Source: Dictyostelium discoideum
Taxonomy: Eukaryota
DNA length: 64,000 nt
NCBI GenBank assembly: GCA_000004695.1
Contig: CM000154.2
Location: forward strand, 1,440,001-1,504,000
Direction: 5' to 3'
Below are positions 54,229 through 57,200 of this stretch, piece by piece. The notes beneath the pieces are model-generated. The model searched no databases. It had not been told where the DNA came from and was given only the letters and a program-made list of their open reading frames with translations. The position numbers were made by a program, and so were the translations under genes. Positions within the stretch are counted from its first letter, which is position 1. Each line of letters starts with the position of its first letter.

Positions 54229-57200
54229 TCAAATATTATAGGAAAAATGGAAATTAGTACCAGCATTTATGAAATGTAGAGGTTTAGTAAAACAACATAT
54301 AGATTCATTTAATTTTTTTATAAATGTTGAAATGAAAAAGATTGTTAAAGCAAATGAAAGACTTACAGCAGAAAATGATCCTTCATATTTTGTAAGGTTT
54401 GTATCCTAAAATATATTAATATATATATATATATATTAATCATAATTATGCTCGCGTAGGTATGAAAATAAATATTAATTAATTATTATTTATATGTATG
54501 TATGTATGTATGTATGTATATAGATTCACAGATATTAATGTTGGATCACCAACATCAACAGAGGATAATTTAGATTCAGTTCAATTAACACCACAAAGAT
54601 GTAGACTTAGAGATATGACATATTCAGCACCAATCTTTGTTAATATAGAGTATACACGTAATAAACAAATCATATCAAAGAGAGATGTACATATTGGTAA
54701 TATACCAATTATGTTACGTAGTAGTAATTGTGTTTTATCAAAGAAAACACCAGAACAAATGGCGGCATTGGGTGAATGTCCAATGGATCCAGGTGGTTAT
54801 TTCATAGTTAGAGGACAAGAGAAGGTTATTTTAAATCATGAACAGTTATCAAAGAATCGTATTATCATTGAGATGGATTCAAAGGGATTGCCATCGGCAT
54901 CGGTAACTTCATCAACACACGAACGTAAATCAAGAACTGGTGTAACACTAAAGAATGAGAAACTCTACTTAAAGCATAACACCTTTGGTGAAGATATACC
55001 AGTGGCAATTGTGTTGAAAGGTATGGGTGTTGAAACCGATCAAGAGATGGCACAGTTGGTGGGGTCCGATGATGTTTTCCTCAACGCAATCACTCCATCA
55101 TTGGAGGAGTGTCAAAAATGTGGTGTGCACACTGCCGCCCAAGCATTGGATTATTTGGGTAGTCGTATTAAAGTTTTCCGTAGACCTTATGGTGTGCAAA
55201 ATAAAAAGACAAAGTCAGAGGAGGCTCGTGATATTTTAGCGGGTGTGGTACTTAATCATGTGCCAGTACGTCGTTACAATTTCAGATTGAAGGTTATTTA
55301 TCTCTCTCTTATGATTCGTCGTATTATTATGGCATCAAAGGACAAGAGTTGCCTCGACGATAAAGATTACTATGGTAATAAAAGAATAGAGTTATCGGGT
55401 CAATTGATATCACTACTCTTTGAAGATTGTTTTAAAAAGTTTCAAAGTGAATTAAAGAAATCAGTGGATCAAGCAATTGCCAAAGCTAATCGTGCAGAGA
55501 ATTTAGATTTACCCAAATTAATTCGTACCGATACAATCACCAATGGGTTCACACATGCGATCTCTAGTGGTCAATGGAATTTAAAACGTTTTAGAATGGA
55601 ACGTTCTGGTGTATCACAAGTTTTATCACGTCTTTCCTATATCTCTTGTATGGGTATGATGACACGTATTCAATCACAATTTGAGAAAACTCGTAAAGTG
55701 GCTGGTCCACGTTCACTTCAACCATCACAATGGGGTATGTTATGTCCATCCGATACACCTGAAGGTGAGGCTTGTCTACATCCTGACACAATAATCACAA
55801 TGTCCAATGGTCAACAAAAACCAATACGTCAATTAAAAGATGGTGATTCAATCATCACTCTAGATCCAATCACTATGGAAGCACATTCAACTCGTATCTA
55901 TTCACATTTCATTAAATCCTCTTCACAATATGGTAAACAATTATTAAAAATAACTACAATCACTGGTAAAGAAATCATTTGTACAAATGATCATAGATTC
56001 TTAACTTCAAATGGTAATTGGAAACAATCAAAAGATTTATTATTAAATGATAAATTATTTTTAATTTCTTCATCAAATCAATTAGAATTTAATAATAATA
56101 ATAATGAAAATAATAATGAGAATAATAATGATATAATTGAAATTTTAAATGAAAATCAATTAATTAATCAAGGAGTAGTACCAATTAAGATTATTCAAGA
56201 ATTAAAATCAATTGAATTATTACCTTTATTAAATAATAATGAAAAGTTAATTACAATTTCAAGAATTATAGGTTCAATTGATAAAATTGGTTCAAATAAA
56301 CAAAATGAACCAATCATTCAATATCAATTTAATTTAATTTCAGATTTTGATCAATTTTTAAAAGATTTACAATATTTAGGTTTTATAAATCCAATTTATA
56401 AATTAAATGAAGAACAACAACAACAACAACAACAAAAAATAGATCATCAACAACAACAACAACAACAAGTAGAACAACAACAAAAATCAATTATTATAGA
56501 TTTTATTGGTAGTTCATTTGGATATTTTATTCAATCACTTTTAAATGAAAAAAATTGGATTGAAAAATCAAATAATCAATTTGTTAAAAAAGAATTTTTA
56601 TCAAGTTTTATTAGTAATGTAAATAGAATTCAATTTAATATTATTGAAGAAATTAATCAACAAAATAATGATTCAAATTTTAAAATTTTATTAAATTATA
56701 AACAACAAAAACAACAACAAAATGAAAAAGAAGAAAGAGCAGTAGTAGATCATGATAATGAAATATTTAATATTAAATCATTACAAATTTTATTAAATCA
56801 ATTTAATGTTATATCAAGTATTGATTTTGAAGAATCAAATTTAATTATAATTAATTCAAGTTTAAAAAAGTTTATTGATTTAATTAATATTAAATTTAAT
56901 CAAAAATTAAATAATCAAATTATACAAATTAGAGAATATTTAAATTATATAAATTATAATAATAATAATAATAATAATGAAGAAATTAATATAAAAAAGA
57001 AAGATTTTGGTTATTTTAAAAAATTAAAAATTAAAAGAAATAGTTTTGAAATTGAAATTGAAAAGATTGAACAATTAAATTATCAAGATTGTCCAGAGAT
57101 TTCAGATTTTACAACAGAATCAGATTATCATAGTATGATTAGTAATGGTTTCGTTAGTCATAACTGTGGTTTGGTAAAGAATTTTGCATTGATGAGTCAT

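Follow-up and report, generated by a model that had tools for sequence, protein, structure and literature searches.

The rpc2 gene and its in-frame insertion

The DNA analysed here is a stretch of 64,000 nucleotides (nt) of Dictyostelium discoideum (contig CM000154.2, positions 1,440,001 to 1,504,000), to which we refer throughout as the window. On its + strand, at 54028..59084, lies rpc2, a three-exon gene of the RPB2 family that encodes RPC2, an essential subunit of RNA polymerase III. The coding sequence of its third exon is interrupted in frame by a segment of 464 codons, which is listed in Table 1 with the other features of the gene, and which is a class-1 intein. We hold this segment, with a probability of roughly 0.92, to be the already published Ddi RPC2 intein: an element that is excised from a precursor of 1608 amino acids (aa), whose homing endonuclease is dead, and which is passed on by vertical inheritance.

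The mechanically derived open reading frame (ORF) at this locus, 54498..59084, contains all of the Pfam Rpb2 domains 1-7; its beginning is spurious, because the 3' tail of intron 2 is a (TATG)n microsatellite that supplies ATGs, among them the one at 54498. Intron 1 carries an unbroken poly-T run of ~35 nt. When the two upstream exons are included, the product of exon 2 aligns with the known sequence of human RPC2 (...KWKLVPAF...DSFN...), and the precursor of 1608 aa is an exact match to EAL63250.1 (XP_636731.1, UniRef100_Q54IZ9), a record named 'RNA polymerase III, second largest subunit [Dictyostelium discoideum AX4]'. Without the insertion (precursor residues 506-969) the protein is 1144 aa long, to be compared with 1133 aa for the solved chain of human RPC2 and 1149 aa for that of yeast. 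With the exteins joined, the protein scores 1503 bits against human RPC2 (7a6h_B) and 1382 bits against yeast RPC2 (5fj8_B), but only ~747 bits against RPB2 and ~396 bits against RPA2; with scores so far above those of the paralogues the host is RPC2, as the original prediction had it. The alignment of the joined exteins to both the human and the yeast subunit is free of gaps across the junction PEGEA/CGLVKN, and exact removal of the insertion from this conserved host site gives back a continuous RPC2. The interrupted sequence had been described as a catalytic-core motif, which is correct insofar as the site is conserved and near the active centre; however, the motif belongs to the 'fork' domain (Pfam Rpb2 domain 3) and is not the catalytic metal-binding motif. 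This location, in the fork domain, facing the cleft and near the active centre, was recognized earlier (Goodwin 2006, PMC1635734).

Since the precursor is identical to EAL63250.1, the element is the one already known from the literature, which agrees with the initial guess that it was known rather than new. Goodwin, Butler & Poulter 2006 (BMC Biol 4:38, PMC1635734) described in that entry an intein of 464 aa, 'Ddi RPC2', which was re-listed from InBase by Green, Novikova & Belfort 2018 (Mob DNA 9:4, PMC5784728). We find no difference from the InBase and 2006 descriptions: the size of 464 aa, Cys1, the terminal His-Asn, the +1 Cys and the runs of Asn and Gln are all as published. What our analysis adds is incremental: the correct assignment of the second endonuclease motif, the state of the endonuclease at the residue level, a gradient of rates, a frame-preserving polymorphism of repeats, and the finding that metagenomes abound in intact relatives, inserted at the homologous site of RPB2-like genes.

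The translation of the insertion (CLHPDTIIT...TNDHRF...GFVSHN, preceded by ...SDTPEGEA and followed by CGLVKNFAL) runs through its 464 codons without a stop, so that the predicted in-frame insertion after GEA stands. In shuffles of the same 1392 nt the number of in-frame stops was 48.6 on average and never below 24; the other five frames of the segment contain 31-90 stops, and neither strand has a further overlapping ORF that reaches 80 aa. The GC content of the three codon positions is 0.33/0.19/0.06. The open frame and this periodicity together indicate that the segment is coding despite its AT-rich interior (10-21% GC).

That interior is nonetheless as AT-rich as the non-coding DNA of Dictyostelium, and a donor-like GGTGAG string is found just upstream of the insertion, as might be expected if the 1392 nt were a spliceosomal intron, open by chance, that is removed from the RNA. 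We consider this extremely unlikely on several grounds. When every GT, GC or AT donor in 55700..55900 was paired with every AG or AC acceptor in 57050..57260, none of the 962 pairs gave back PEGEACGLVKN; there are 0 stops vs ~49 expected, with strong codon periodicity; and both ends of the insertion show significant homology to inteins. Furthermore, the real introns of rpc2 are only 103 and 127 nt long and can hardly be aligned from one species to another, in contrast to the ends of the insertion, whose ratio of non-synonymous to synonymous substitution rates (dN/dS) is ~0.05. Finally, a dictyostelid-like RPC2 on a metagenomic contig (L001: JGI 3300028107, Ga0256787_1012452, 103..2157) is continuous over the positions of both D. 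discoideum introns and still carries the insertion at the same site. The position of intron 2 is occupied in the genomic DNA of D. discoideum, D. firmibasis, D. citrinum and Tieghemostelium lacteum, and for this reason L001 is possibly derived from a transcript; as evidence on removal from the RNA, its intron-less but intein-bearing structure is only suggestive. L001 may represent a transcript of an unsampled dictyostelid lineage. Its final ~60 nt resemble unrelated sequence.

Table 1. Features of the rpc2 gene and of its intein, in positions of the window.
Feature	Position	Strand	Remarks
rpc2 exon 1	54028..54138	+	Met1 to Glu37; ATG and GT donor read off the sequence
rpc2 intron 1	54139..54241	+	103 nt, GT..AG, 7% GC
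rpc2 exon 2	54242..54396	+	
rpc2 intron 2	54397..54523	+	127 nt, GT..AG, 17% GC
Exon 3, N-extein part	54524..55772	+	ends at mature residue 505 (Ala505); Pfam Rpb2 domains 1, 2, 3
Ddi RPC2 intein	55773..57164	+	464 codons, precursor residues 506-969
Intein block A	55773..55811	+	nucleophile Cys1 at 55773..55775
Intein block B	55965..56006	+	T71-N-D-H74 at 55983..55994; aligned to DnaB mini-intein block B
LAGLIDADG homing-endonuclease relic (probable)	56073..57044	+	intein residues 101-424, 10-21% GC, N/Q-rich
(AAT)n tract, poly-Asn	56090..56137	+	in-frame; length varies between Dictyostelium species
LAGLIDADG motif-1 relic	56253..56294	+	Ile172 at catalytic Asp position
(CAA)n tract, two Gln7 runs	56413..56483	+	in-frame; length varies between species
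LAGLIDADG motif-2 relic	56583..56615	+	G-D-G part, including catalytic Asp, deleted
(AAT)n/(CAA)n-type array	56701..56720	+	in-frame
(AAT)n tract, Asn7	56952..56978	+	in-frame; length varies between species
Intein block F	57093..57143	+	D445, F446, T447, T448, H453; aligned with DnaB mini-intein block F
Intein block G (NGFVSHN)	57144..57164	+	His463-Asn464; aligned with DnaB mini-intein block G
C-extein	57165..59084	+	+1 Cys (57165..57167) of CGLVKN to stop codon; Pfam Rpb2 domains 4-7

Splicing domain, probable endonuclease relic and selection

Blocks A, B, F and G can all be recognized in the insertion, and an alignment of 14 allelic inteins (A1) shows no variation at C1, T71, D73, H74, D445-T448, H453, H463 and N464; the +1 Cys is likewise invariant in the allelic family. 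The signature of class 1 that had been read from the sequence (Cys1, TxxH in block B, terminal His-Asn, Cys at +1) is therefore complete, with the Asp and His of block F in addition. Among the NCBIfam models, TIGR01445 (intein_Nterm) scores 31.7 bits, with a curated cut-off of 24.5, and models of intein-containing RtcB and radical-SAM proteins also match. The best match in sequence among solved structures is the Npu DnaB mini-intein (4o1r, phmmer E = 4e-6), which covers residues 4-99 and 418-464. A model of the single sequence by AlphaFold was unusable, with a predicted local distance difference test (pLDDT) score of 34.5; we used instead an AlphaFold2 (AF2) model built from the alignment of allelic inteins, in which the splicing domain (residues 1-100 and 420-464) has pLDDT 84-94, while residues 102-136 and 284-362 have low values. 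The top Foldseek matches of this model in the PDB are PI-PfuI, the Npu and Ssp DnaB inteins, VMA inteins, PI-SceI and Hedgehog Hog; all the best ones are inteins or Hint domains, and a Hint fold is predicted for the splicing domain. The DnaB mini-inteins (4o1r, 1mi8, 6frg) share this fold with a root-mean-square deviation (rmsd) of 1.8 Å over ~100 columns, but have no endonuclease and reside in other host proteins at other insertion sites; PI-PfuI and PI-SceI share the bipartite layout of splicing domain and endonuclease, but their endonucleases are active, and their hosts and insertion sites are again different.

To judge the state of the endonuclease we aligned 14 allelic relatives of full size with the intein of D. 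discoideum. In these relatives the two canonical motifs take the form ...ARI.GF.LADGS.. and ..VKREFLAGFQGGDG... In motif 1 the catalytic Asp is found in 13 of the 14 relatives, and the corresponding residue of D. discoideum is Ile172; in motif 2 all 14 have G-[GA]-D-G where D. discoideum is gapped. Towards the C-terminus of the endonuclease, D. discoideum is further missing a segment of ~60 residues, which in some relatives matches helix-turn-helix (HTH) models. The LAGLIDADG-like motifs had originally been described as degenerate, and they are; the second of them, however, had been placed at 56499..56528, which aligns with another conserved helix of the relatives (..GGCFASLLLALG..), and the true relic of motif 2 is the one given in Table 1. 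Likewise, the interior is rich in Asn and Gln, but to call it dominated by poly-N and poly-Q was an overstatement, as N+Q make up 30% of residues 101-424. No LAGLIDADG family of Pfam is found in the intein at E<=1; PF14528 is insensitive for this lineage, in that just 2 of the 14 alignment members (which do not include the copy in the window) match it at E<=0.01. The whole-model Foldseek alignments to endonuclease-bearing inteins had rmsd >15 Å, and we draw from them no conclusion on the fold of the relic.

With both catalytic Asp residues and the C-terminal segment lost, the homing endonuclease is probably a dead relic, as first proposed, and an element whose endonuclease is lost would no longer home but pass vertically. 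The motifs of the T. lacteum intein are similarly degenerate (FGYIDQMN and YLSGYLSKLN), and L001 is degenerate at motif 1, which suggests that inactivation is older than the divergence of these lineages. It might still be argued that the intein is mobile and encodes an active LAGLIDADG endonuclease: at 464 aa it is of full size, its residues 101-424 are homologous to the intact endonuclease domains of allelic inteins, and the frame is open. We regard this as very unlikely, because the catalytic positions kept by 13/14 and 14/14 relatives are replaced or deleted, the HTH-matching segment is absent, there is no LAGLIDADG match in Pfam, poly-N/Q tracts of variable length between species have been inserted, the non-synonymous rate (dN) exceeds that of the exteins by a factor of 12-30, and T. 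lacteum shows the same degeneration.

For the rates, calculated by the method of Nei and Gojobori (NG86), the window was compared with genomic sequences from D. firmibasis (L003) and D. citrinum (L004). In the exteins dN/dS is 0.008-0.021 (0.017-0.021 in the N-extein, 0.008-0.012 in the C-extein); it rises to 0.04-0.05 for intein residues 1-100 and 0.09-0.25 for residues 425-464, and reaches 0.33-0.98 in the endonuclease relic (0.29-0.63 away from gaps). This last ratio is inflated: in the relic, the third position is A in 50% of the codons, T in 48%, G in 2% and C in 0%, and as an effect of this composition (~98% A/T) dS is depressed to 0.10-0.25, versus 0.34-0.59 elsewhere; between Dictyostelium species it is 2-4 times lower than in the flanking exteins. 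Non-synonymous substitution is ~12-30 times faster in the relic than in the exteins, and 3-5 times faster than in the splicing domain. Had splicing been lost, one would expect neither the invariance of the catalytic residues nor the strong purifying selection on the splicing domain.

Judging from its residues and from what is known of the family, the intein would thus be competent to splice. Translation would give the precursor of 1608 aa with the intein included; an N-S acyl shift at Cys1, helped by Thr71 and His74 of block B, would be followed by trans-thioesterification to the +1 Cys, then by cyclisation of Asn464 with the help of His463 and of Asp445 and His453 of block F, and lastly by an S-N shift joining Ala505 to Cys. 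The products would be an RPC2 of 1144 aa, with the fork-domain motif PEGEACGLVKN intact, and a free intein of 464 aa. Given that the site is in the fork domain, that no intein-free copy was found and that RPC2 is essential, efficient splicing is presumably obligatory: this would account for the constraint on the splicing blocks, and for a relic that stays open but drifts, with its triplet repeats growing and shrinking. Because the C-extein is essential and would be lost with any stop or frameshift upstream of it, the reading frame would be kept.

There are, nevertheless, observations that weigh against our reading of a spliced intein with a dead, vertically inherited endonuclease. Profile searches gave a divided answer: TIGR01445 is over its cut-off, but PF14890 (Intein_splicing), although it matches end to end (residues 8-464, E = 3.5e-8), has 33.8 bits, just below its gathering score of 35.8. 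Our literature search turned up no experimental report of splicing by the Ddi RPC2 intein. Dividing the dN of the relic by the dS of the exteins yields no more than ~0.13-0.26, and the rpc2 introns are much less conserved than the relic, a comparison that is qualitative because the introns are too diverged and rich in indels to be aligned reliably; the relic is therefore not clearly neutral, and some residual constraint on it is possible. The Pfam score just short of its threshold, and the fact that the case for splicing is drawn from residues and family knowledge, would also suit a splicing-incompetent domain that is permanently retained, the precursor itself being the functional RPC2 subunit. 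Little probability can be given to this idea, as none of the catalytic residues is missing or variable, purifying selection on the splicing domain is strong (dN/dS 0.04-0.05), and 464 additional residues in the cleft-facing fork domain would be unlikely to be tolerated.

Distribution and relatives of the intein

The 90%-identity cluster of the precursor comprises another D. discoideum isolate, D. cf. discoideum, D. firmibasis and D. citrinum (two), with lengths of 1571-1602 aa; all its members have the intein at residue 506, with 427-464 aa, and a mature protein of exactly 1144 aa. Overall, six Dictyostelium assemblies and T. lacteum have an intein at residue 506 (mature protein 1144-1145 aa), and in the alignment the differences in length between species fall in or beside homopolymeric tracts of N, Q or E. 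The site is empty (PEGEA/CGLVKN) in the RPC2 of Heterostelium album, Balamuthia, Planoprotostelium and Physarum, as well as in two EukProt orthologues with 82-83% identity; there was no intein-free Dictyostelium RPC2 among the top matches to the mature protein. The assemblies also bear on the notion that the locus is an assembly or annotation artefact, or a pseudogene, which has nothing to recommend it but an unusual base composition and has a practically negligible probability: six Dictyostelium assemblies, independent of one another, and T. lacteum all have the same architecture, the exteins are very strongly constrained, and no second copy free of the intein was found.

The allelic intein of T. 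lacteum, retrieved with the mature protein, is like that of D. discoideum in its position (precursor residue 506), in the N-terminal splicing domain (~64% identity), in blocks F and G, which are nearly the same, and in the degeneration of both LAGLIDADG motifs; it differs in being shorter (399 aa), in lacking the long poly-N/Q tracts, and in a more diverged relic. It appears as 'RNAPoli-2_Dictyostelium_lacteum' in the supplementary files of Green 2018 (PMC5784728). The N-extein of L001 shares ~80% identity with D. discoideum and likewise with T. lacteum, and its allelic intein is ~62% identical over the first 100 residues. The supplementary files of Green 2018 also list different RNA-polymerase inteins in other dictyostelids, one in Cavenderia (D.) fasciculatum and two in one protein of Heterostelium album (P. 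pallidum). The first of the two Heterostelium inteins begins with CLWEEEPVLM, which resembles the beginning of inteins that we found inserted at site ~700, QSPRNxYQ/C (CIWEEEPVWM in P0219, CLWENELVLM in P0211). A 2023 paper in PNAS (PMC10710043) reported RNA-polymerase inteins in 'some amoebozoans', and inteins in the two largest subunits of the polymerase both in eukaryotes and in Nucleocytoviricota.

A homologue search with the intein alone gave no matches, probably because low-complexity words swamped the word index, since an exhaustive HMMER scan of 1.84 billion representatives (E<=1e-3) produced 658 relatives. A junction query (40 extein and 105 intein residues) retrieved only intein-free RPC2 fragments: those of its matches with 50-70% coverage seemed to be allelic inteins, but were really alignments extending into the C-extein. 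RPB2-family hosts account for 126 of the best 150 of the 658 relatives, many with several insertions and lengths of up to 2849 aa. Within these best 150, the N-termini cluster at three sites (in mature D. discoideum coordinates): ~505, the site of Ddi RPC2 (TPEGxx/C, 27 cases), ~495 (HxxxWG../C, 18 cases), and ~695-705 (QSPRNTYQ/C, 76 cases). About 20 inteins could be delimited at the exact homologous site (...HN/CG[LI]VK), either full-size (~440-535 aa) or mini-inteins of 135-150 aa; one such host, minus its intein, scores 805 bits against RPB2 vs ~570-590 bits against RPC2. In P0125, P0127, P0161 (2736-2849 aa) and other RPB2-family proteins of metagenomic origin the match to RPC2 is broken into 5-6 pieces, corresponding to four or five insertions per gene, and the insertion sites that recur in these multi-insertion proteins are ~495, ~505, ~700, ~911 and ~1060 in the mature D. 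discoideum numbering.

The full-size metagenomic Pol II-like RPB2 inteins (e.g. P0123, P0128, P0139, P0193) occupy the homologous site in a paralogous host and have a homologous endonuclease domain, but in contrast to Ddi RPC2 both of their LAGLIDADG motifs (GFxLADGS, FLAGFQGGDG) and the HTH-like C-terminal segment are intact, their hosts are nearer to RPB2 than to RPC2, and many of these hosts carry several inteins. An example is an RPB2-like gene at 3994..9802 of a metagenomic contig (L002: ENA ERZ26871208 contig_198609), which is divided among five gene calls, probably by frameshift errors, and contains at least two inteins; the one at the site homologous to that of Ddi RPC2 has intact LAGLIDADG motifs and ends with Ser-Asn in place of His-Asn. 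The contig is gene-dense, 10 kb in length, and its other genes are mostly ORFans (most of them without Pfam match) plus an XPG/FEN1-like nuclease: it possibly comes from a giant virus, with which these features are compatible.

These results bear on how the intein may have reached and persisted in the dictyostelids. Allelic inteins with intact endonucleases are common today in RPB2-like genes, possibly those of giant viruses, and on this basis one may imagine that the intein entered dictyostelid RPC2 by cross-paralogue homing from a giant-virus RPB2. To this can be linked the proposal that the relic is under residual selection, because it was apparently catalytically dead before the split of Dictyostelium and Tieghemostelium and yet 400-460 residues have been kept, changing more slowly than introns; it could, for instance, be a scaffold for folding or spacing without which splicing is inefficient, or else restrain the maturation of Pol III conditionally, depending on redox state or on assembly. 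Taken together, the two proposals have a low probability.

Few nuclear inteins occur outside fungi, and the general interest of Ddi RPC2 is that it is among them: a selfish element in an essential and highly conserved site of a polymerase. Its persistence by vertical descent after the death of the endonuclease would give a clearer view of the late part of the intein life cycle, with a gradient of constraint (exteins > splicing domain > relic) accompanied by frame-preserving growth of triplet repeats, while RPB2-like, possibly giant-virus, genes are indicated as the present reservoir of active relatives.

Neighbouring features

In the whole of the window (1..64000) no tRNA gene was detected by ARAGORN. 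Downstream of rpc2 and convergent with it is an ORF of 484 aa (59232..60686, - strand), which matches no Pfam family at E<=0.001 and contains long runs of Asn and Gln in its N-terminal half. On the other side, at 52016..53071 of the - strand, an ORF of 351 aa matches with its N-terminal part the C-terminal two-thirds of Pfam PRP38 (E = 1e-23) and continues into a long low-complexity tail rich in Arg, Asp and Ser (RDSRDSRDN... repeats); it is probably the last exon of a gene for pre-mRNA splicing factor 38.

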